Below, piece after piece: positions 5,765 to 58,053 of a stretch of 64,000 nt of DNA. The notes beneath the pieces are model-generated. The model did not search any database and was not told the origin of the DNA. It saw only the letters and a list, made by a program, of their open reading frames with translations. How positions within the stretch are numbered: the first letter of the stretch is position 1; every line of letters starts with the position of its first letter. The translations under genes and the position numbers were made by a program. Source of the stretch: Minisyncoccota bacterium (GTDB lineage: Bacteria > Patescibacteriota > Minisyncoccia > Phycocordibacterales > JABMNX01); NCBI GenBank assembly GCA_026195275.1, contig JAPHQU010000004.1:3119-67118 (forward strand). The letters are read 5' to 3'.

Positions 5765-6511
5765 ATGGAAATACCAATATTATACGAAGATAATGATCTT
5801 GTGGCGATAAATAAGCCCGCGGGTCTTATTGTGCATTTTGACGGTCGCAACGAAGAGCCCTCAATTGTTGATTGGCTGCTTGAGCGCTATCCGGAAGCAG
5901 CAGGAGTGGGGGAGGACGGTGTGAGCCCTCAGGGTGTGCATATTCCGCGGTCGGGTATCGTGCATCGACTTGATCGCACCACCTCAGGTGTGATGATTGT
6001 TGTAAAGACCCAAGAGGCACACACGTTCATCAAAAAGCAGTTTCAAGAGCGCACTATGGACAAGCGGTACGCGGCGCTGGTCTACGGACACCCAAAGGCC
6101 GACCGTGGTGTGATCGATATGGAGATTGGTCGCACAAAAAAGAAGCCACGAAAATGGAGTGCACAACCGGGAAAGAGTGGCACGCTTCGCTCGGCAATCA
6201 CTGAGTGGCGCGTGATCGATCGTCTCTTGGATTCTGAAACAGGAGAGCCCGTCACCTACCTCACCGCAAGCCCAAAGACCGGACGTACACATCAGATTCG
6301 TGTCCACCTCAAAGCAATCCACCACCCTATTGTCTGCGATCATATCTACGCACCTAAAAAGGTGTGTATTGGCGGGCTGGAGCGTCCAGCGCTCCACGCG
6401 CGCTCAATCAGCTTCAATCTCCTTAATGGTGAGCGCAAGACCATTGAGGCACCACTGCCGGAGGATTTTGAGCGAGTACTCAAAAACCTACGTAATATTG
6501 CAGAAGAATAA
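5765..6511 (+). CDS. RluA-family pseudouridine synthase
   Basis: Catalytic HRLDRTTSGVMIVVKT motif; 248 aa, no S4 domain. Confidence 0.85.
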   Translation: MEIPILYEDNDLVAINKPAGLIVHFDGRNEEPSIVDWLLERYPEAAGVGEDGVSPQGVHIPRSGIVHRLDRTTSGVMIVVKTQEAHTFIKKQFQERTMDKRYAALVYGHPKADRGVIDMEIGRTKKKPRKWSAQPGKSGTLRSAITEWRVIDRLLDSETGEPVTYLTASPKTGRTHQIRVHLKAIHHPIVCDHIYAPKKVCIGGLERPALHARSISFNLLNGERKTIEAPLPEDFERVLKNLRNIAEE

Positions 6512-7349: not shown

Positions 7350-7361
7350 CAATGGTAAACA

Positions 7362-7393
7362 AAAACGACAAGTTGCAACTTGTCGTTTTTGTT
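7362..7393 (+). terminator. Rho-independent terminator after tRNA-Leu
   Basis: AAACGACAAGTTGCAACTTGTCGTTTTTGTTT hairpin plus U-tract. Confidence 0.7.
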
Positions 7394-7463
7394 TAGAACG
7401 CAATTTGCATTGCGTTCGTGCCATTGTGCCAGGCGGAGGCATGTCCCGAGCTGTGAGAGGGAA

Positions 7464-7538
7464 GCCGAGCCCGGGGAGGAAGTGCTTAGCGAGATGGAGT
7501 GCGAAGCACGAACAGTGAGCTTAGCAACTTGACCCCAC
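7464..7538 (+). repeat. Copy 1 of a ~55-75 nt hairpin-forming repeat (GCCGAGCCCGGGGAGGAAGTGCTTAGCGAG...GCTTAGCAACTTGACCCCACA)
   Basis: Three related copies at 7464, 7580 and 8021 share GAGYCCGGGGAGGRAGTKCTTA...GCTTAGMAACTYGACCCC. Confidence 0.7.
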
Positions 7539-7579
7539 AAAGCTCTAGAAACCTGACGCCCAGGTAAAAAATGAAAACA

Positions 7580-7640
7580 GGCGAGCCCGGGGAGGGAGTT
7601 CTTAATGAGCGTAGCGAATTTAGAAACTCGACCCCACACA
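7580..7640 (+). repeat. Copy 2 of the same repeat family
   Basis: GCGAGCCCGGGGAGGGAGTTCTTAATGAGCGTAGCGAATTTAGAAACTCGACCCCACACA. Confidence 0.7.
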
Positions 7641-7835
7641 GTAAACAAAGCAGGTTGCTCGCGCGTCGTGTAGTGCATTGGGAAGTGGACGTTCGTGTAC
7701 CTCAATCGACTTTCGTCACTTCTCTACGCGATTGCTCGACTTTTGAACCATAAATCTGGTATAGTCGAGAGGTCTCCGAGTTATGAATAAACGCCTCATA
7801 CCCATGAGGCGTTTAAAGACTCAAGGGATATATAT

Positions 7836-12974: not shown

Positions 12975-13008
12975 AAATTATTATAAGTGTAGCGAATTAG
13001 GATTTCTC

Positions 13009-13087
13009 AACCCCTCACTTGGCGCGTTGTATATCATAATCAAGTATGTTATATATGAGTGGCTTAAGATAACAAACCAAGTGAGGG
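13009..13087 (+). promoter_or_regulatory. Long-range stem (CCCCTCACTTGG ... CCAAGTGAGGGG) in the rplK leader
   Basis: 12-bp perfect inverted repeat enclosing ~55 nt, located 45 nt upstream of the rplK start. Confidence 0.35.
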
Positions 13088-13132
13088 GTGTAAGATTTCT
13101 AAACTCACTTCATTCGTTAAGAACATCTAATC

Positions 13133-13558
13133 ATGGCAAAGAAAATAACACGAAAGATAAAGCTCCAGATTCCCGCAGGGAAGGCTACTCCGGCGCCACC
13201 AGTCGGTACCGCACTCGGTCCTGTTGGTATCAACATTGGCGAATTCGTAAACCAGTTCAACGAGCAGACCCGCGAGCTTGGTGGCGATATCATCCCGGTG
13301 GAGCTTTCGGTATATGATGATCGAACATTTGATTTCATCCTTAAGACCTCACCTGCCTCACGACTCCTTTTGAAGAAACTTGGCAAGCCAAAGGGTTCAG
13401 GAAAGAACCTCGTCAGCAAGGCAGGAACTCTTACTAAAGCGCAGGTGCGCGAGGTAGCGGAAGAGAAAATGCCTGACCTCAACACCAACGATATTGAACA
13501 GGCAACAAAGATTATCGAGGGTACCGCGCGAAGTATGGGAATCGAGGTGAAAGAATAA
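13133..13558 (+). CDS. rplK: Ribosomal protein L11
   Basis: [38 protein letters not shown] is near-universal L11 sequence. Confidence 0.95.
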
Positions 13559-13582
13559 GGGTTAAATAAAGAGGAAACATAA

Positions 13583-13618
13583 AAACACAACTCGCGCTTT
13601 CACGCGAGTTGTGTTTTT
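13583..13618 (+). terminator. Rho-independent terminator after rplK
   Basis: AAAAACACAACTCGCGctttcaCGCGAGTTGTGTTTTT. Confidence 0.75.
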
Positions 13619-36588: not shown

Positions 36589-38844
36589 CTACCCTCGTCC
36601 TCTTTCGCCTGATTCATTCTCATCAACGTTCTCATAATCTTCTTCCTCTTCGGTGTCATAGTCTTCTTCTGGCGCTTCGTAGGACTCTTCAGTATCGTCT
36701 GTGCCGACAAGAATATCGCGCGGTTTTGAACCGTCTGCTGAGCCGATCACACCGCGCTCTTCAAGCATGTCCATAAGGCGCGCGGCACGCGCATAGCCAA
36801 CTCGAAGTTTTCGCTGGAGGTATGAGGTTGATGCTTTGCCCGCTTCAACAACGACATGGTACGCGTCTTCGTAGAGGTCGTCTTCGTCGTCGCTACCGTC
36901 AATCGTCGTCGCGAAGATCGAGTTGTCACCCTTTGCTTCGGTGAGATCGATTTCGCTTGGGAGTTCGTCTTCATAGTTTTTAGCGAGGAAATTTGCAACC
37001 TTCTTCACTTCATTCTCTGAGAGGAATGGTGACTGGATGCGGCGCGGCTTCGACATCTCGCCGGAGAGGTAGAGCATGTCACCGGCGCCGAGAAGCTTCT
37101 CGGCGCCGCCGGTATCAAGGATGGTGCGTGAGTCGATCTGGCTCGCGACCTGAAGCGCGATACGGGTCGGTACGTTTGCTTTGATAAGCCCGGTAATAAC
37201 CTGGACTGACGGACGTTGTGTCGAGAGGACAAGGTGGATGCCGACCGCACGGCTCATTTGAGCAAGGCGCACAATACCAGCCTCGAGCTCTCGTGGGTAG
37301 GTCTGCATAATGTCCGCGAGCTCATCAACAACAACGACGATATAGGGCATTGGCTCAGGCATCTCTTCTTCAGAAAGGTTTTTCTTCACTGCAGGTGCGA
37401 CCACGTTCTTGTGGTATGAGGCAATATCGCGCACCGACTCTGACTCAAGGATGTCGTAGCGTCGATCCATCTCGTTTGCGAGCCACTTGAGCGCAAGAAT
37501 AGTCTTCTTTGCATCAGTAATGACCGGAGTAAGGAGGTGTGGGATGTTTTTGTAGAGGGTAAGTTCAACACGCTTTGGATCGACCATTATGAGGCGGAGA
37601 TCCTGTGGTGACTTGCGGTACAGTAACGACATGATGAGGTTGTGGATCATCACCGACTTACCAGAGCCGGTGGTGCCGGCAATCAAGACGTGCGGCATCT
37701 TTCCTAGATCAGCAAAGTGCGATTCTCCGGTGATGTCGCGACCAAGTGCGACGAGGAGCGGTTTGTCGGTATCTTTGAAGTCACTTGCCGACAGAAGGGA
37801 AGCGAGCCCAACGGTTGATTTTGAATGATTTGGCACCTCGATACCCACGAGCGACTTGCCGGGGATTGGTGCCTCAATACGCACCGGGTGCGCAGCGAGG
37901 GCGAGTTCGAGATTATTTTGGAGTGTGAGGATCTTTGAGAGGCGTACACCTTCGGCGGGCTTAAGCGCGTAGCGGGTGACTGTCGGCCCGACAGATATTT
38001 CATCCATCTCTACGTTAATGCCAAAGTTCTGTAGCGTACGCTTGATGATGTTTGCGTTTGCTTTCACATCACCAACATCAGGCTTGCCTTTGTCTTTCTC
38101 GAGGAGTGAGAGTGGGGGAGTCTCGTAGTCGCCGTAGACCGGGTAGACTGATATCTCACCCTTTTTCTTACTGAAGCCAAACATACCTCGCTTCGGCTCG
38201 TCTTCAACCTCTTCATCTTCTTCTTCGTATTCTTCCTCATCTTCGTACTCCTCTTCAGGCTCATCTTCGTACTCCTCATCTTCGTCTGCGTAGGTCTCGA
38301 CATCGTACTCCTCATCTTCTTCTGTGGCTTCATCCTTACGTGAGAGGAGGCGTGAGAGGAGTGGAAGGGAAGACGGAGTTGGGAGGAAGTCGAACATAAT
38401 AACGAGCGAGAGAAGAGTGACCACTACGAGCACCAAGACGCTCGCATAGGTATCAAAGAGTGCGATAAGTGGCAGTCCAATAAAATGCCCCAAAATACCG
38501 CCGCGGCCGGGGAGTGCGATATCGATAAGCCCAAGTCCGGAAAAAAGAAACAAGACAGCGCTGATGATCTTAAGTGGTCCGTATGCATGCTCTAAGTCAC
38601 GAAAGAACGATGTCGCAAAGAAGAGGAGCACTGCTGGCAGCAGGAAGTAGCCAACACCGAGAAGGAATGAGAGTCCGCTGTAGGTCATCTCCCCTGCGAT
38701 CCCGGCAAGGTTGAATGCGGCAAGAATAAAGAAGAGCGTGACCGAGAGGAAGACGATGCCCCAGATGCCGCGGACAGTCTCTTCTTTTAGTTCAGCAAAA
38801 ATATTTGAATATTCGGATTCCTTTTTCTTTTTTTTTGGTGCCAT
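36589..38844 (-). CDS. ftsK: DNA translocase FtsK/SpoIIIE with a highly acidic linker
   Basis: N-terminal TM region, acidic linker EEDEEYDVETYADEDEEYEDEPEEEYEDEEEYEEEDEE, motor domain with GTTGSGKS Walker A, and a C-terminal gamma wHTH. Confidence 0.9.
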   Translation of the reverse strand: MAPKKKKKESEYSNIFAELKEETVRGIWGIVFLSVTLFFILAAFNLAGIAGEMTYSGLSFLLGVGYFLLPAVLLFFATSFFRDLEHAYGPLKIISAVLFLFSGLGLIDIALPGRGGILGHFIGLPLIALFDTYASVLVLVVVTLLSLVIMFDFLPTPSSLPLLSRLLSRKDEATEEDEEYDVETYADEDEEYEDEPEEEYEDEEEYEEEDEEVEDEPKRGMFGFSKKKGEISVYPVYGDYETPPLSLLEKDKGKPDVGDVKANANIIKRTLQNFGINVEMDEISVGPTVTRYALKPAEGVRLSKILTLQNNLELALAAHPVRIEAPIPGKSLVGIEVPNHSKSTVGLASLLSASDFKDTDKPLLVALGRDITGESHFADLGKMPHVLIAGTTGSGKSVMIHNLIMSLLYRKSPQDLRLIMVDPKRVELTLYKNIPHLLTPVITDAKKTILALKWLANEMDRRYDILESESVRDIASYHKNVVAPAVKKNLSEEEMPEPMPYIVVVVDELADIMQTYPRELEAGIVRLAQMSRAVGIHLVLSTQRPSVQVITGLIKANVPTRIALQVASQIDSRTILDTGGAEKLLGAGDMLYLSGEMSKPRRIQSPFLSENEVKKVANFLAKNYEDELPSEIDLTEAKGDNSIFATTIDGSDDEDDLYEDAYHVVVEAGKASTSYLQRKLRVGYARAARLMDMLEERGVIGSADGSKPRDILVGTDDTEESYEAPEEDYDTEEEEDYENVDENESGERGRG

Positions 38845-38880
38845 CTCTTAGATTTTATTATGAGTGAAGCGAATTAAAAA

Positions 38881-38951
38881 ATCTTAGACCCCGTGAAATG
38901 CGCCGGCTCGCCGGCGCACCTCCGCCCAAAGGCGGAGGATTTCACTGGGGG
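38881..38951 (-). ncRNA. Conserved structured leader module in the ftsK 5' UTR (three-way-junction-like; paralog of the rplJ leader module at 50916..50975)
   Basis: On the ftsK sense strand: CCCCAGUGAAAUCC-[hairpin]-[hairpin]-GCAUUUCACGGGGUCUAAGAU. The outer 11-bp stem and flanks are identical to the rplJ copy; inner hairpins differ but still pair (covariation). Confidence 0.55.
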
Positions 38952-38978
38952 TTGGTTCATGTTTTATACAGATTTTCA

Positions 38979-38990
38979 TCGATTATACCA
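38979..38990 (-). promoter_or_regulatory. Extended -10 promoter (TGGTATAAT) for ftsK, ~28 nt upstream of the leader module
   Basis: Minus-strand sequence ...TCGTGGTATAATCGATG... No good -35. Confidence 0.4.
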
Positions 38991-39256
38991 CGATGTACAC
39001 GCAGTTTTCAGGTGTACAACGGTGGAATGAATAAAGAGTAAGAAGTTGAGGGGTGTGTAAGGAAAGGGCGACGAGCCGCATGCCCAATGCTCTCTATTTT
39101 TTGGGTGCATCTTCCTAACTCTTCATTCGTATTTCGTAATGTCTCAGAGGGGTTGTGTTCAAGCTTGTCCTATATATAATGGACATATGTAGATGTCTTT
39201 ATATAAAGGACATATAAAAGACAGTATAAAGGACACAATAAAGGTCAAAAGAGTCT

Positions 39257-40027
39257 ATGAGCCCACAAAAGAAAAACCAAGCACTCTTGCAGAACACGCA
39301 CGGCATTGATATTGAAGCCGTAGGACCTTTTGGAAACAACACCGCTGGTGTCCATGTGTACAAAAGGACAGAAAAGATTGTCGCCGCTCTATATCTCGTG
39401 ACAAATTTTGTCCCTGAGAGCGAGCCGGCACGACGTGTGATAAGAGACAAGTCAATCCACATTCTCTCTGATGTCCTTGAGCTTCGCTCAGGTTTTGGCT
39501 CTGCCGGGTCAGAAGGGGTTGAGCGGATCGTCGCATCGATTTGCGAGATAGTCTCTCTTCTTGATGTGGTACGCATTGCGGGGTTCGTTTCAGAGATGAA
39601 CGCAGAGATCCTCAAGCGTGAGCTCAACAACCTTGTAATCTTTTTGCGCGGCGTGAGTAAGAGCGGCGATGCTGAAAAGGTCACTTTCGATGCGGGTGAT
39701 TTTGACACTGATTATAAAGGACATAAAAAGGACACCGTTATGTCCTTTTATTCTACAAAGGACAAACATATTTCTTCAGGATCAAAAAAACGTACAGTGC
39801 GGCAGACGCAGGGGGGAGCAAAAAAAGCACAGGAGCGTAGCGATAGGCGGGATCAGATACTTGGTGTCGTAAAGGACAAAAAACAGGTGACGATAAAGGA
39901 CATAATTGAAACCATTACCGACTGTAGCAGCAAGACGATTCAACGTGAACTCATTGCACTTGTTGAGAGTGGTGTCCTTAAGAAAGAAGGAGAGCGGAGG
40001 TGGAGCACATATTCGCTTAAGAGTTAA
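39257..40027 (+). CDS. Putative transcriptional regulator with a C-terminal winged-helix DNA-binding domain (N-terminal all-alpha domain, possibly HEPN-like)
   Basis: C-terminus QVTIKDIIETITDCSSKTIQRELIALVESGVLKKEGERRWSTYSL is a typical wHTH. The N-terminal domain has an R-x4-H motif (RDKSIH). Confidence 0.5.
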   Translation: MSPQKKNQALLQNTHGIDIEAVGPFGNNTAGVHVYKRTEKIVAALYLVTNFVPESEPARRVIRDKSIHILSDVLELRSGFGSAGSEGVERIVASICEIVSLLDVVRIAGFVSEMNAEILKRELNNLVIFLRGVSKSGDAEKVTFDAGDFDTDYKGHKKDTVMSFYSTKDKHISSGSKKRTVRQTQGGAKKAQERSDRRDQILGVVKDKKQVTIKDIIETITDCSSKTIQRELIALVESGVLKKEGERRWSTYSLKS

Positions 40028-50654: not shown

Positions 50655-50683
50655 TTGACTCTCAGAACCGGCTCGGGTACTAT
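50655..50683 (+). promoter_or_regulatory. Sigma-70-like promoter for rplJ-rplL (TTGACT-N17-TACTAT)
   Basis: Near-consensus -35 and -10 hexamers with 17-nt spacing, implying a ~330-nt 5' leader before rplJ. Confidence 0.55.
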
Positions 50684-50689
50684 GCTATG

Positions 50690-50835
50690 CACTGGACTGA
50701 AGACAGCAGGTGCCGGGAGAAAACGGCTCAATATCCTGCCGAGGCAAGGTGCCCCAACTTGGGGTGCTCCCTTCAGACCATTTTGGTCGATAGAGAACCT
50801 GTTCGCGAGCGATAGCGAGCGTTACTGGTTCTTAA
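50690..50835 (+). promoter_or_regulatory. Candidate L10(L12)4 autoregulatory leader region (structured; CTGAAG...CTTCAG enclosing stems)
   Basis: Position between the promoter and rplJ. Long nested helices: CUGAAGACAGCAGGUGCC...GGUGCUCCCUUCAG. Identification is by context only. Confidence 0.35.
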
Positions 50836-50837
50836 CC

Positions 50838-50895
50838 CTATGAAATGTGTCGCACAGCGACACGCTTCCGCACCAAGGCGGAAGATTTCATCAGG
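50838..50895 (+). ncRNA. Leader module copy (degenerate): UGAAAU-[GUGUCGCacaGCGACAC]-[CUUCCGCaccaaGGCGGAAG]-AUUUCA
   Basis: Same architecture as the module at 50916..50975, arranged in tandem. Confidence 0.45.
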
Positions 50896-50915
50896 GTAGT
50901 GAATTTAAATCCAAA

Positions 50916-50975
50916 CCCCAGTGAAATCCTGCGCCGTAGGGCGCGGGTGCGTCGCCAAGGCGTCGCATTTCACGG
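50916..50975 (+). ncRNA. Conserved structured leader module in the rplJ 5' UTR (paralog of the ftsK leader module)
   Basis: CCCCAGUGAAAUCC-[GCGCCguaGGGCGC]-[GGGUGCGUCGCCAAGGCGUCGCAUUU]CACGGGGUCUAAGAU. 22-nt and 15-nt flanks are identical to the ftsK copy. This is followed by a hairpin (ATTCGTTACactcGTAACGAAAT) and then AAUCUAAGA-AUG. Confidence 0.55.
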
Positions 50976-51020
50976 GGTCTAAGATTTCGTAATTCGTTAC
51001 ACTCGTAACGAAATCTAAGA

Positions 51021-51512
51021 ATGGCAAAAACAAAACAACAGAAAACAGAAACACTTGAGCAGCTCACTGACGCGGCAAAGAACGCCGGTTCAGTAGTATT
51101 CGTGAACTTTCACGGACTTGGTGTCTCAGAAACCAACGAGATGCGTAGCGCACTCAAAGACGAGGGTGTGACGTATCTTGTGGCAAAGAAGACACTCACG
51201 AAGCGTGCAATCGCGGATGCTGGGGTTGAGGGTGAGGTGCCGGAGCTTGAGGGCGAGCTCGCACTTGCGTGGGGTGACGATCAGATCGCACCGGCGCGTG
51301 GTGTGCAAGAATTTGCCAAGAAGCATAAGGACAGCCTCTCGATCCTCGGTGGTATCTTTGAACACCGACTTGTAGGGAAAGAGGAGATGATCACTATCGC
51401 TTCAATCCCGTCCCTTCAGACGCTTTACGGACAGTTTGCAAATGTCATCAATTCCCCAATCCAGGGATTTGTATTTGCGCTTAACGCGATCGCGGAGAAG
51501 AAGGAAGCATAA
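51021..51512 (+). CDS. rplJ: Ribosomal protein L10
   Basis: 163 aa; L10 pattern and position upstream of rplL. Confidence 0.85.
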   Translation: MAKTKQQKTETLEQLTDAAKNAGSVVFVNFHGLGVSETNEMRSALKDEGVTYLVAKKTLTKRAIADAGVEGEVPELEGELALAWGDDQIAPARGVQEFAKKHKDSLSILGGIFEHRLVGKEEMITIASIPSLQTLYGQFANVINSPIQGFVFALNAIAEKKEA

Positions 51513-53818: not shown

Positions 53819-54955
53819 GCATAGGGTCCATAAAGAGGGAACCGCACCCTGTTTGTAGGACGCGGCACCAGTTTGCTTCGCTTCAGGTGGCTTCTTGTGA
53901 TTCTCTAAGAATTTCTTTCGCTTGCTTTAGTGTTGTGAGTCCTCCTGAAAGAACCCCACCATCTCACAAGACGGAAGTGTCTTTCTTTAGAGAGTGTTAT
54001 GTAGACTGCGCCTCCCTTGAATGCCATGAAGCTGGTGCACGGTATATTCTAAGGGTCCGAATACTCAGGAATAGCACGGTGTCAGCTGGGTTGTTGACTC
54101 AAAAACCCGCCTCGTGTATACTGCTGTCTACGTGATTATGAGTATTGATTTGAAGAACACCAACAAGCGGGGGCGCTAGCCGGGGCATCGACTCATGACT
54201 AACGCAGCCGCGATCTCGCGGTTTTTTTCTTGCCTTCACTCATAACTGACATCACGAGAACTTTGACAACGTCATAGGATCCATCTGGTCGGAGAGACTA
54301 GGCGGATCCGCAGGTAAAAACAAACCAAGACTAAAACTAAATGTTTACGTGCCGCTGTAAGCAAGCGGCACACACGAGTGTGGCTATGGTTATACTCGTG
54401 TAGCGGTTTTTAGATTTCCTGATAGGAGATCTAAGAGCGTGTGGTGGATACCTAGACTGAAAAAGGCGATGAAGGACGTGGCATGTCTGCGATAAGCTTC
54501 GGTAAGGTGACTAGCAACCTTTGACCCGGAGATTTCCGAATGGGGGAACCCGGCCGACTCTGTCGGTCACCTTTCTACTTGATAGAAGGGAGCGCACCCG
54601 GGGAAGTGAAACATCTCAGTACCCGGAGGAGAAGAAACCAATAGGAATTCCCGTAGTAGCGGCGAGCGAACTGGGACGAGCCCAAACTCGATTTCACCTC
54701 TACCATCTGTGTTTACACAGGTGCTAGAGGTGGTATCGGGGGTTGTAAGGCAACAATGTCATTTTTTCGAAAATGAGAAAAGTTACAAATTGTAATGTTA
54801 ATGGAAGCTTCTGGGAAGAAGCACCCAAGAGGGTAACAGTCCCGTACATGAAAACATATACAACTTTTTTGTTGTTGTCCTTGAGTAGCTCAAGACACGA
54901 ATAGCTTGAGTGAATCTGCCAGAACTAACTGGTAAGGCTAAATACTTTTTCAGAT

Positions 54956-54994
<39 letters not shown>

Positions 54995-56235
54995 GTCCGG
55001 TGAGGACAGTGAAATAGACTTGAAACCACATGCTTACAAGGAGTCAGAGCGGTCGCAAGACCGTCATGGCGTGCCTATTGAAGAATGAGCCAACGAGTTC
55101 ATATATGTTGCAGGCTAAGCCCTTATCGGGTGGAGTCACAGGGAAACCGAGTGTGAATAGCGCGAACCATTATGTAGCATGTATGAGACCCGAAGCTCGG
55201 TGAGCTTGCCATGGGCAGGGTGAAGTTTGTGGAAACACAGATGGAGGCCCGAACCGGGAGGTCGTTCAACGCCTTCGGATGACCTGTGGTAAGAAGTGAA
55301 AAGCTAATCGAACCGAGTAATAGCTGGTTCTCTCCGAAATAGCTTTAGGGTTAGCGTCGTGTGTTCCTGTTGGGGGTAGAGCACTGGCAGGTGTGAATAG
55401 GGGGAAACCTCGTCATTCCTATCAAACTCCGAATACCAACAGTTAATAGCGCGGCAGTTAGAGTCAGGGGGCTAAGCTCCTGTGCTCAAAAGGGAAACAG
55501 CCCAGATCCCAAGTTAAGGTCCCAAAATTCACGTTAAGTGCACTTAAGGAGGTGAGATTTCTCAGACAATGAGGAGGTTGGCTTAGAGGCAGCCATCCTT
55601 TAAAGATAGCGTAACAGCTCACTCATTCAGAGATTTCGCGCCGCAAATGATCGGGGCTAAACGTGATACCGAAACTGGGGGCTTTCCATTCATTCGTGAA
55701 TGGGGAGCGGTAGGAGAGCGTTCTGTTCTGCGATGAAGCCGAAGGGATAACCCACGGTGGAGCGTTCAGAAGTGAGAATGTTGGCACGAGTAACCGCATG
55801 GCATGTGAGAATCATGCCCGCCGAAAGATCAAGGTTTCCTTCGCGATGTAGATCAGCGAAGGGTTAGTCGGGCCTAAGCCGATCCCGAAGGGGGGAGGCG
55901 ATGGACACATGGTTAATATTCCATGACTTTACGAATATGCGATGGGATGACGGAGGGTTGTACTCTGAGCGCATTATTGGATTTGCGTTGGTGCTGTGAG
56001 GGGGTCTCTTAGGGAAATCCGGGAGACACCACCCCAAGCAGAGCGAAAATGGTGCGGTTTCGGCCAATCCAAATTCAGAGGAGCACGCTTCCAAGAAAAG
56101 TCTCTAAGCTTCAGTATTCGTAAAACCGTACCCCAAACCAACACAGGTGATCAGGTCGAGAAGACCAAGGCGAACAAGTGAGTCTTCCTCAAGGAACTCG
56201 GCAAAACAGCGACCGTAACTTCGGAATAAGGTCTG

Positions 56236-56335
56236 CCTGTGCAGCCAATAGAGGAGTTCATGAAGAAAACAAAAGATGAGACATGTCATATATGTATGCA
56301 TATACATGACAACGGGTGCAAGTGTTCGATCGAGA
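56236..56335 (+). other. Expansion segment in a 23S variable helix, closed by a perfect 14-bp helix (CAGCCAATAGAGGA/TCCTCTATTGGCTG)
   Basis: About 85 extra nt relative to E. coli between ...CUUCGG.AGAAGG... and ...ACUGUUUA.CAAAAACACAG. Contains internal palindromes. Confidence 0.5.
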
Positions 56336-56517
56336 GATCGAATCCTCTATTGGCTGCGTAGGCCGCAGCTAAAGAGCCCTGGCGACTGTTTACCAAAAAC
56401 ACAGCTCCCTGCGAACTCGTAAGAGGATGTATAGGGGGTGACGCCTGACCAATGCCAGAAGGTTAAGCACGGATGGTGTGATGAGTTTACTTGTCATGCT
56501 GGGCTGTGTAAGCCCTG

Positions 56518-56564
<47 letters not shown>

Positions 56565-57215
56565 AGTCCAGTAATTTTGGACGTGCACGAATGGTGTAAC
56601 GACTGGGGCACTGTCTCGAGGAAGAGCTTGGTGAAAATGCAATGGCGGTGAAGATGCCGCCTACCTGCAGCTAGACGAAAAGACCCCAGGAGCTTTACTA
56701 CAGCTTGATATTGGGGGTGTGAGTTGACTGCGTAGCATAGATGGGAGACTTTGAAGCGGACCTTTCGGGGATCGTGGAGTCGCCAGTGAAATACCATCCT
56801 TTCAATTTGCATTCTCTAACCTGAACGGAAAAAACGTGTAGGGACAGTATCTGGTGGGTAGTTTGAGTGGGGCGCTCTCCTCCTAAAAAGTAACGGAGGA
56901 GTCTATTAAGGTCCTCTAGGCGCGAATGGAAACCGTGCCGATAGTGTAAAGGCAAAAGAGGGCTTGACTGCAAGGGGTACATCCCGAGCAGGCGCGAAAG
57001 CGGAGCTTAGTGAACCGAGAGTTTCCTTTAGACGGAGCTCGAGATTAACGGATAAAAGTTACCCTGGGGATAACAGGCTGGTATTGCCCAAGAGTCCATA
57101 TCGACGGCAATGTTCGGCACCTCGATGTCGGCTCACCTTATCCTGGGGCTGGAGAAGGTCCCAAGGGTTTGACTGTTCGTCAATTAAAAAGGTACGCGAG
57201 CTGGGTTCAGACCGT

Positions 57216-57526
57216 TGAGAAGTTGAATTTATTTGACTTCTCAACAGTCTGAGTCCACTCTAACGACACAAAATCGAAGTCTTTTCGTTTATTCAATGAG
57301 AATTAATCAATCTAATCACGGCGGCTGGGTGTTTTCGTAACACCTAGTAAAGCTGACTTATATCGGTAAAACCCGAACCCATTCAGGGAGGGCAATACCG
57401 AGGAAACCCCGCACTTGCATGCAAGTGAAGGGGGTCCGTAGAGACTGAACGTCAGTTATCTGCACACTGTAATGGTGTGTCAGTTAAAGCTACAGTCCAA
57501 TGCACGAAGTAATTCGTGAGAACATG
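57216..57526 (+). other. Probable ORF-less group I intron in 23S rRNA domain V (near E. coli positions ~2593-2597)
   Basis: Conserved 23S sequence GGGUUCAGACCGU | ... | CGUGAGACAGGUUGGUC is interrupted by ~311 nt. The insert follows a U, ends in G, starts with a 10-bp P1-like hairpin (GTTGAGAAGT/ACTTCTCAAC), has AGACUG...CAGUCC (P7-like) and a terminal hairpin CACGAAgtaaTTCGTG (P9-like). Confidence 0.55.
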
Positions 57527-57667
57527 CGTGAGACAGGTTGGTCTTAATCTGCTGTGGGCGTCGATCTTTGAGAGGAGTTGTTCCTAGTACGAGAGGACCG
57601 GAATGAACTGACCTCTGGTGTATCGGCTGTCGCGCCAGCGGCACTGCCGAGTAGCTATGTCGGGAAT

Positions 57668-57700
<33 letters not shown>

Positions 57701-57882
57701 AACCTCAAGATAAGAGATCATAGACCCCTAGGAGATGACTAGGTGATAGGCTCTCGGTGTACGCACAGTAATGTGTTTAGCCAAGGAGTACTAATTCGTC
57801 GTACTCCTGTTAGGAAATCTGAAAATCGCTGTAAACAAAAAGTTTGTTTTTACCAACTCAAGTATTCAATGATGGGTGTTTG

Positions 57883-58053
57883 GGGCCGTAGCTCAGAAAG
57901 GTCACACGCTGTTTCTCAGTTCTTTTGGATTGATTTACTCCATGAGCTGCCAACTTAAGGGGTGGGTCAGGAACACGCGTGTGTCGCGAGAGAGCATCTC
58001 GTCTTGGGAAGGTCGCAGGTTCAAATCCTGCCGGCTCCACCAACTTTCTATCA
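57883..58053 (+). tRNA. Disrupted or intron-containing tRNA-like gene: canonical 5' end and 3' T-arm/acceptor end separated by ~100 nt
   Basis: 5' end GGGGCCGUAGCUCAG. 3' end GCAGG-UUCAAAU-CCUGC-CGGCUCC-A-CCA, complementary to the 5' acceptor. No contiguous D/anticodon arms could be folded. Confidence 0.4.

Follow-up and report, generated by a model that had tools for sequence, protein, structure and literature searches.

The leader of ftsK in a 64,000-nucleotide stretch of contig JAPHQU010000004.1 of a Minisyncoccota bacterium (the window, by which the whole of this stretch is meant) contains a structured module that is probably a recently acquired copy of a mobile family of palindromic repeats of Patescibacteria. 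Many copies of this family are found within and across genomes at non-orthologous sites, as is characteristic of interspersed palindromic repeats, and the orthologous sites at ftsK, rplJ and rplK are polymorphic for presence and absence of the repeat. The original prediction, made from the sequence of the window alone, described a structured module common to the leaders of ftsK and of rplJ, the gene of ribosomal protein L10. The common module is real, and Pfam supports both gene identities. The tie between the two genes that the shared leader seemed to imply does not hold: the module is a copy of a repeat that precedes dozens of unrelated genes, and we conclude with good confidence that it neither couples ftsK to rplJ nor serves as a co-regulation device.

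The ftsK module and its repeat family

Alignment of the ftsK unit (38957-38842, minus strand) with the rplJ unit (50909-51023, plus strand) yields 96 identical columns out of 116 up to the ATG, with a local score of 75 compared with a maximum of 13 in 300 shuffles. The units are thus 83% identical through the start codon, and the stretch shared with the region upstream of rplJ amounts to ~115 nt, in good agreement with the ~110 nt of common leader originally proposed. The 21-mer GCATTTCACGGGGTCTAAGAT has exactly two occurrences in the window, against an expectation of 0. The FtsK protein encoded in the window is 100% identical to the FtsK of the NCBI entry 'MAG: Candidatus Pacebacteria bacterium' (MAG, metagenome-assembled genome).

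The extended -10 box predicted on the ftsK strand belongs to the native ftsK promoter, with the -35-like hexamer CTGAAA 18 nt upstream of it; it is kept in the closest sister genome, and the promoter sequence CTCGTGGTATAATCGGTGAAAATCT is present in sister L119, whose ftsK leader lacks the element. Apart from this promoter, the promoter scan found no promoter-like sites in 38780-39260. Scans for promoter-like and terminator-like sites found none inside the ftsK and rplJ copies and detected only the native promoters upstream, so that both copies should be transcribed in the sense orientation within 5' untranslated regions (UTRs) and the module should be part of the ftsK 5' UTR. The minus-strand sequence and the promoter scan confirm that the module lies downstream of the ftsK promoter in the sense orientation, as proposed, at a distance that needs correction from ~28 to 31 nt (from 38982 to the 5' strand of P1). 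Likewise, the interval to which the element had been assigned, 38881-38990, covers the promoter and the module and omits the 3' half of the shared unit, namely the hairpin P4, which extends down to 38846. The predicted transcription start lies ~20-25 nt upstream of P1, which would thus not be 5'-terminal.

The RNA of the ftsK leader is predicted to fold (-49.8 kcal/mol, z -5.4) into a three-way junction, formed by an outer stem, P1, and two hairpins, P2 and P3, and followed by P4. The fold of the rplJ leader reaches -52.0 kcal/mol (z -7.7), and two of the changes that distinguish P2 and P3 of the two copies are compensatory. As single-stranded DNA (ssDNA), the two strands of the ftsK module fold about equally well, at -29.5 and -30.0 kcal/mol. 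The P4 loop of ftsK contains the conserved motif TTCGCTTCACTCATAA (38873-38858).

Species-representative genomes were scanned with the pattern CCAGTGAAATN{30,50}ATTTCACGGGG, which retrieved 118 loci, compared with ~6 estimated by chance, mostly from Patescibacteria and often several per genome (at least 7 in Kaiserbacteria MFLU01 and 5 in JAPLZG01); covariance-model matches number 191 in 651 kb. In the whole window, scanned with filters off using a covariance model built from 16 foreign copies, there are exactly three modules: those of ftsK (38888-38951, minus strand, 43.5 bits, E 6e-10) and rplJ, and a diverged one at 50835-50897. The P4 of ftsK was also recovered independently, by an nhmmer profile made from non-window copies only (38890-38852, E 7.5e-6), as was the P4 of rplJ. 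In the family, P1 is conserved in sequence (consensus ACCCC-a-GUGAAAU / AUUUCAC-GGGGU) and closes P2 and P3 with essentially no junction nucleotides, while the sequences of P2 and P3 vary freely, with a median identity of 0.29 between the inner sequences of different genomes. Two hairpins separated by at most 3 junction nt are nevertheless formed by 71 of the 115 distinct inner sequences, compared with 3% of shuffles (median z -3.4). Covariation was assessed on a model-fitted alignment of 128 distinct sequences in which both strands are included. Standard pairs fill 95.2% of the cells (71.1% after shuffling), the covariation score is 0.522 (0.099 after shuffling, with none of 500 shuffles reaching the observed value, and 0.04-0.10 in slid-register controls), and double changes occur at all 12 pairs of P2 and P3. 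All four types of Watson-Crick pairs are found at every position of P2 and P3, with almost no G·U.

No match to the ftsK leader was found in Rfam 15 (cmscan of 38700-39150, E up to 1), and a scan of the whole window at gathering thresholds returned rRNA and tRNA only. The literature searched, on leader motifs, leaderless translation and repetitive extragenic palindromic (REP) sequences or miniature inverted-repeat transposable elements (MITEs) in the candidate phyla radiation (CPR), yielded no description of this element. A phage origin was rejected, there being only 2 matches in the viral collection.

In several respects the family behaves as DNA. G·U pairs account for at most 3% in P2, P3 and P4, equally on both strands, and the covariance model scores both strands; a sense-strand RNA signature, sought through G·U counts, was rejected for these helices and appears solely in an optional upstream arm, P0. 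Among the copies without the leader-type arrangement described below, 15 are sense and 7 antisense in co-directional gene contexts, and these modules often lie 0-36 nt past a stop codon. The 16S rRNA leaders of three loci (L086, L100 and L102, two labelled Moranbacteria and one Bdellovibrionales) carry a reverse-orientation module, CCCCGUGAAAU ... AUUUCACUGGG, which is conserved in all three and lies ~70 nt downstream of a canonical BoxA, UUCUUUAACAAUUGAG. Insertion in frame into coding sequences, in the manner of Rickettsia palindromic elements (RPEs), is observed for the family and not for the window copies. At locus L013, a 57-nt module lies in frame within an open reading frame (ORF). At locus L058 (Liptonbacteria MHLG01000023; 2794-2862, 4118-4151 and 5850-5955), tandem 36-nt simple P1 hairpins, each consisting of CCCCAGUGAAAU, a 9-nt loop, AUUUCACGGGG and UAAA, are located within consecutive ORFs. 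Those at 5850-5955 are in frame and add three 12-aa units NPSEIxxKFHGV to a GT4-like glycosyltransferase ORF, the protein reading ...AINELKV[NPSEIQDKFHGV][NPSEIEKKFHGV][NPSKIKRKFHGV]KSKVKLLIVGDG....

The pattern scan also retrieved loci outside CPR, from Desulfobacterales and other phyla (L002, L022, L027, L032, L041, L065, L072, L099, L108, L112 and others), in which P1 encloses a nested second stem, GCCCCGGUUGAAU ... AUUCAACAGGGC; these are multi-copy intergenic repeats, sometimes found beside short tandem repeats. A shared recognition factor, horizontal transfer and convergence are candidate explanations for their relation to the CPR family. A REP arrangement with a REP-associated tyrosine transposase (RAYT) was considered for one of them, L099, and rejected, the gene between its two copies encoding NamZ and not a transposase.

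Presence and absence of the repeat in sister genomes

The original prediction had pointed to the upstream regions of ftsK and rplJ in sister genomes as a check, and the comparison was made for four sisters at each of three genes (L119-L122 for ftsK, L123-L126 for rplJ and L127-L130 for rplK), with protein identities of 74-91% and conserved synteny. The element is present at neither ftsK nor rplJ in any of the four sisters compared at each gene, and the covariance model has no matches in the twelve sister loci. At ftsK, where the sister proteins are 84, 84, 75 and 74% identical and gene order is kept, the leaders are short and lack the module. At rplJ (L10 82-70% identical), the promoter is retained in the sisters together with the L10 leader, whose terminal hairpin and U-run are followed after 25-40 nt by the ATG, with no module in between; the window leader matches them up to GGTCGAT, and from there on ~226 nt of repeat stand in place of the U-run and the remaining leader. 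At rplK, the nusG-rplK spacer measures 19-62 nt in the sisters and 158 nt in the window, where it holds a related leader cassette. The most parsimonious reading is that the repeats at these three sites, which comprise four modules or cassettes, were acquired in the window lineage only; retention in this lineage alone is a much less parsimonious alternative. Target-site duplications were not found on comparison of the filled and empty ftsK, rplJ and rplK sites, where, at 74-91% protein identity, short ones could have decayed.

The same comparison separates the module from the L10 autoregulatory leader, which was tried as its identity and rejected, since RF00557 hits 50679-50794 only and the sisters have that leader without the module. 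In the sisters, a U-run follows the last hairpin of the L10 leader (..CAGACCAUUUUGGUCGA), and the repeat insertion in the window has removed it (50795-50835); attenuation-type autoregulation of rplJ may be altered by this loss. Many contigs with close homologues of L10 or L11 are only ~0.6-2 kb long, which is consistent with assemblies breaking at nearby repeats. The features of the three leaders are collected in Table 1.

Table 1. Coordinates of the ftsK, rplJ and rplK leader features in the window
Feature	Position	Strand	Description and evidence
Native ftsK promoter	38982..39011	-	CTGAAA, 18-nt spacer, TG-extended TATAAT; TGGTATAAT at 38990-38982
ftsK P1, 5' strand	38939..38950	-	CCCCAGTGAAAT; bulged A at 38946; sequence and fold
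ftsK P2 hairpin	38919..38938	-	CCTCCGCC-TTTG-GGCGGAGG; RNA and ssDNA folds; family-wide covariation
ftsK P3 hairpin	38900..38917	-	GCGCCGG-CGAG-CCGGCGC; RNA and ssDNA folds; family-wide covariation
ftsK P1, 3' strand	38889..38899	-	ATTTCACGGGG; sequence and fold
ftsK P4 leader hairpin, AU-rich	38846..38888	-	5' arm 38888-38878, loop 38877-38857, 3' arm 38856-38846; RNA fold
ftsK coding sequence	36589..38844	-	ATG 38844-38842; Pfam FtsK_SpoIIIE, FtsK_alpha, FtsK_gamma, FtsK_4TM
rplJ promoter	50655-50683	+	TTGACT-17-TACTAT; promoter scan; not part of repeat
L10 leader proper	50679-50794	+	RF00557, 34.3 bits (gathering score 44), E 0.0011; repeat inserted downstream
Third, diverged module	50835..50897	+	ACCCUAUGAAAU ... 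AUUUCAUCAGGGU; in tandem upstream of rplJ copy; covariance model 30.3 bits, E 3e-6
rplJ module copy	50915-50978	+	P1 50916-50927 and 50967-50977; P2 50928-50947; P3 50949-50966; covariance model 42.5 bits
rplJ P4	50978-51020	+	rplJ ATG at 51021; whole paralogous copy 50915..51020
rplJ gene (L10)	51021-51512	+	Pfam
Related leader cassette, nusG-rplK spacer	12978..13132	+	Upstream arm ~12978-13002; rplK ATG at 13133
rplK-cassette outer stem	13010-13022 / 13077-13089	+	ACCCCTCACTTGG / CCAAGTGAGGGGT (short forms ACCCCUCACUUGG/CCAAGUGAGGGGU); different from module P1
rplK-cassette P4-type hairpin	13090-13132	+	nhmmer P4 profile, E 1.2e-5; reverse-strand match for upstream arm

The third module retains P1 through a compensatory change from G-C to A-U and a relocated bulge. 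The outer stem of the rplK cassette encloses ~52 AT-rich nt that contain a promoter-like TTGTAT-17-TATATA, and simple longest-ORF calling misassigns a minus-strand ORF, 13117-13590, over rplK. P4-like structures were also observed in a ~380-nt non-coding stretch at 7350-7740 on the minus strand, which contains two tandem hairpins (GUGGGGUCGAGUUUCUAAAUUCGCUACGCUCAUUAAGAACUCCCUCCCCGGGCUCGCC at ~7594-7650 and a longer one at ~7480-7545), ends in an intrinsic terminator at ~7360-7392 and, even at E 0.5, matches nothing in Rfam; decayed copies of the repeat and an unannotated non-coding RNA are both possible identities.

Leader-type copies and competing explanations

At least 36 copies share the arrangement seen at ftsK and rplJ, in which P1 is directly followed by P4 and the ATG lies 37-46 nt past P1. 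Most of the 35 distinct leader-type copies form P4, and in 31 of the 33 with a basal helix its first pair links the A of the AUG with the U that follows GGGG. The arms covary (GAUGA/UCAAUC, GGUGA/UCAACC, GGCGA/UCAGCC, GACUA/UAGUC and UAAUAU/AUAUUA), and the loop, approximately UAAnUCGCUUCRCUCnUAAG, is the most conserved single-stranded sequence of the unit. In about one third of the leader-type copies an upstream arm (GAGYRAAGYG...) is complementary to this loop; the resulting helix, P0, crosses P4 and in the longest examples overlaps its 5' arm. A -10-like hexamer TAnnnT is found 6-9 nt before P1 in 14 of 31 leader-type copies, and -10-like hexamers inside the cassette or P4 are not conserved among these copies. 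This non-coding palindrome contains in-frame stop codons, located 2-5 codons upstream of the ATG. The genes that follow encode, according to NCBIfam, NusA, NusB, ParB, GlmS, EF-G, S11, MraZ, ClpP, L3 and FtsA and, judging from N-terminal sequences, S12, S19, L2, L20, S14, EF-Tu, NusG, SSB, Fpg and YebC. In L012, L059 (Kaiserbacteria MFLU01) and L025, additional unrelated palindromes are nested in the 5' arm of P4, for example GGGGUGUA[UGCCAAAGGCAUAUCGUGUC...GACACGAUA]AGAUUU, and such leaders may be hot spots for further hairpin insertions.

The host of these leaders does not use Shine-Dalgarno (SD) sites: SD-like 4-mers precede 12.5% of 40 window genes, compared with a background of 14.6%. In several window genes the ATG follows a -10 box at a distance of 6-10 nt, a sign that leaderless or near-leaderless mRNAs may be frequent. 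In neither the window nor the sisters is rplK followed by rplA, which fits a subgroup of Parcubacteria described as having neither uL1 nor the anti-SD motif (PMC9297842). CPR have kept RNase J, RNase III and PNPase (PMC12641178).

Under the reading that we favour, the element would spread as DNA, with P1 as the presumed recognition site of a mobilising factor, by analogy with the stem base of REP sequences and RAYT, and with P2 and P3 as a hairpin tip that would be free to vary. At ftsK, transcription of the element from the native promoter would extend the leader by a very stable three-way junction and, directly before the AUG, a weak AU helix. Effects at the RNA level, on the expression of ftsK or on the stability or translation of its mRNA, are possible. 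The leader-type subfamily would replace the native 5' UTR up to the AUG. Its persistence before highly expressed genes would mean that it is tolerated or favoured there, probably on account of two properties: an A-rich start context without an SD site, in an organism that does not use SD, and a compact structure, which could block RNase J or PNPase and thereby protect mRNA ends. Four features speak against regarding the leader-type subfamily as mere junk, namely its exact fit to the ATG, the covariation of P4, its repeated occurrence before highly expressed informational genes and the sense bias of P0.

Several observations weigh against the mobile-repeat reading. Long P0 helices always require sense-strand G·U pairs, those of at least 9 bp numbering 13 when G·U is allowed and 4 when A·C is allowed instead, a hint that selection at the RNA level has acted on some members of the family. 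Different species carry leader-type copies before the same genes (rpsL, fpg and rpsS), and the position before highly expressed informational genes argues for a function in cis. Unlike a simple cut-and-paste MITE, each of the three insertions in the window extends precisely to the ATG, in place of 19-45 nt of the native leader, a pattern that points to selection for function or to spread by a recombination-type process. Repeated loss could in principle account for the empty sites of the sisters, and at rplK, L128 retains a reduced remnant of the cassette. The invariance of P1 is partly an artefact of the P1-based search, although diverged copies keep P1 by compensatory changes. Finally, the analysis identified neither a donor copy nor a target-site duplication nor a transposase, though no search was aimed at a cognate transposase.

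A domesticated expression cassette, a functional RNA of 5' UTRs and intercistronic regions with secondary mobility, is a possible but distinctly less probable account. In such a cassette, the junction would shield the 5' end of the mRNA against RNase J and its 3' end against PNPase, or form an RNase III site, and P4 would present the AUG independently of SD. The exact junction with the AUG, the covarying arms of P4 and the core translation, transcription and division genes downstream are in its favour, as are the -10-like hexamers, which would place P1 at the 5' end of the transcript in 14 of 31 copies, the frequent position of non-leader modules just past stop codons, the disuse of SD in this genome and the nucleases kept by CPR. 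It is opposed by the finding that all sisters compared lack the element at ftsK, rplJ and rplK, genes at which it is hence not required, by the lack of sense-strand G·U bias in P2, P3 and P4, by the antisense and intra-ORF members of the family, and, at ftsK itself, by a P1 predicted not to lie at the 5' end. A bolder proposal, which we regard as doubtful, is that the leader-type composite is a portable SD-free cassette for translation start or processing in Paceibacteria without SD/anti-SD pairing, which would recruit or position ribosomes on an internal AUG or mark a cleavage releasing leaderless mRNAs, much as tRNAs punctuate transcripts in mitochondria; start-codon-directed spread of such a cassette would account for three independent insertions ending exactly at the ATG.

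The remaining explanations fare worse than the mobile repeat family at specific points. Binding of NusB/NusE to the P4 loop near the start codon, in an antitermination or repression leader of the BoxA type as in E. coli suhB, is very unlikely. BoxA motifs in 5' UTRs are short, of the CUC-UUAA type, located <50 nt from the start codon, and often found at translation-related genes (Baniulyte et al. 2017, PMC5725501). The majority P4 loop, GCUCCUUAAAAA, has one mismatch to GYTCTTTAANA, which is a gamma-proteobacterial consensus (PMC5725501), and the 11-mer TTCACTCATAA of the ftsK loop recurs within the window only in the 23S rRNA leader (54235-54245). The loops of the window copies, ACUCAUAAUAA and ACUCGUAACGA, however, fit the consensus poorly, and rRNA leaders of CPR contain more canonical versions, namely UUCUUUAACAAUUGAG in L086, L100 and L102, AUUCUUUGACAAUUG in L116 and GAACUUUGACAAC at ~54258-54270 in the 23S leader of the window itself; in CAYWKC01, the rRNA BoxA differs from the P4 loops of the same genome (L009 and L023). 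A gene-specific leader of ftsK and rplJ, whose bound protein or ligand would coordinate division with ribosome synthesis, is highly improbable: in its favour, both copies are sense in 5' UTRs, similar and stably folded, but the lack of conservation at either gene in the sisters largely refutes it, the unit precedes dozens of unrelated genes, a junction with 0-1 unpaired nt leaves no ligand pocket and the real L10 leader is a separate element. A riboswitch or other sensing leader was rejected on similar grounds, being absent at the orthologous ftsK, rplJ and rplK and conserved only in the P1 stem and the P4 loop. There is hardly any case for a site acting at the DNA level (a promoter cassette, a terminator or a site for a nucleoid or replication protein) with no RNA role. 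The palindromic, Watson-Crick-only helices that fold equally on both strands and the -10-like boxes beside P1 in some copies agree with it; the ftsK and rplJ copies have no internal promoter- or terminator-like site, -10-like hexamers within the cassette are not conserved, covariation between P4 arms ~30 nt apart is not explained by promoter function, and the variable 30-50 nt spacer excludes a simple dimer operator.

Two further candidates were rejected. A hammerhead or other small self-cleaving ribozyme would require an unpaired junction core, which is lacking, and there is no Rfam ribozyme match. Tandem interspersed guide RNA (TIGR) arrays with Tas proteins consist of alternating edge and loop repeats (UG...CCA) with two 9-nt spacers and adjoin a gene with a Nop domain (PMC12045711). 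The 36-nt period of L058 is coincidental, as its units have a single 9-nt A/G-rich loop, lack UG and CCA boxes and lie in frame in ORFs.

The rRNA region of the window was also recorded. The 23S leader (54096-54420, plus strand) has a promoter TTGACT..TATACT at 54096-54124, a hairpin with U7 and then CUUCACUCAUAAC at 54233-54245. The 23S rRNA itself (54421-57813, plus strand) is 3393 nt long compared with a 2925-nt model, and hence contains insertions. At 57882-58039 (plus strand), an Rfam tRNA call that was not reported by ARAGORN spans 158 nt, which suggests an intron-containing tRNA. Insertions in 23S rRNA and intron-containing tRNAs are typical of CPR.

Significance and comparison with known systems

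Among bacteria, the genomes of Patescibacteria rank with the smallest and most streamlined, and yet the window lineage carries an actively spreading palindromic repeat, which has rewritten the leaders of the essential genes ftsK, rplJ and rplK since the divergence from sisters with 74-91% protein identity. If the family is selfish DNA only, it provides a new tractable example of the RPE or REP type and a likely cause of breaks in CPR MAGs at ribosomal-protein genes; if the leader-type unit has been co-opted, it offers a handle on translation start in CPR without the anti-SD motif. In either case, annotators should avoid reading these repeats as gene-specific, riboswitch-like leaders.

The closest parallels are found among interspersed palindromes of other bacteria. 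The RPEs, which Ogata and co-workers are said to have described in 2000 as selfish palindromic DNA inserted in genes, resemble the present family as short palindromic repeats of a reduced genome, with intergenic copies, copies in leaders of RNA genes and in-frame copies, and with no evident associated transposase. This family differs in its perfect three-way junction, sequence-conserved outer stem, start-codon-ending subfamily and Patescibacteria host; no sequence relationship is expected. REP sequences and bacterial interspersed mosaic elements (BIMEs) of proteobacteria are imperfect palindromes mobilised by RAYT, intergenic and co-transcribed, which stabilise upstream mRNA against 3' exonucleases. 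They share with the present family a conserved stem base, a variable tip, both orientations and many copies per genome. The present unit, however, lacks the 5' tetranucleotide GTAG, is flanked by (A)CCCC ... GGGG(U), with the outer stem ACCCCaGUGAAAU/AUUUCACGGGGU, and has a tip of two hairpins instead of one.

Correia elements or Neisseria miniature insertion sequences (NEMIS) and the enterobacterial repetitive intergenic consensus (ERIC) are MITE-like, form long hairpins that are substrates of RNase III and RNase E, and alter the expression of neighbouring genes. Insertion near genes, transcription into 5' UTRs and presence/absence polymorphism are common to these elements and the present family; in contrast to them, the three compared sites show no terminal inverted repeat with TA duplication, and the native leader is replaced up to the ATG. 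Mycobacterial interspersed repetitive units (MIRUs) are similar as transcription-oriented intercistronic repeats with ends that coincide with flanking stop and start codons, and differ as tandem direct repeats with small ORFs for translational coupling, whereas the unit described here is a non-coding palindrome. The L10 leader (RF00557) is likewise found upstream of rplJ, in the same transcript, but it is a separate, sister-conserved element, and the repeat lies between it and the ATG. BoxA is comparable in the position of the P4-loop motif, from which it differs by the poor fit of the window copies and by the distinct BoxA of CPR rRNA leaders. The family has no Rfam match and is undescribed in the literature found, and it is set apart from all these systems by the perfect three-way junction and by a subfamily abutting the start codon in Patescibacteria.

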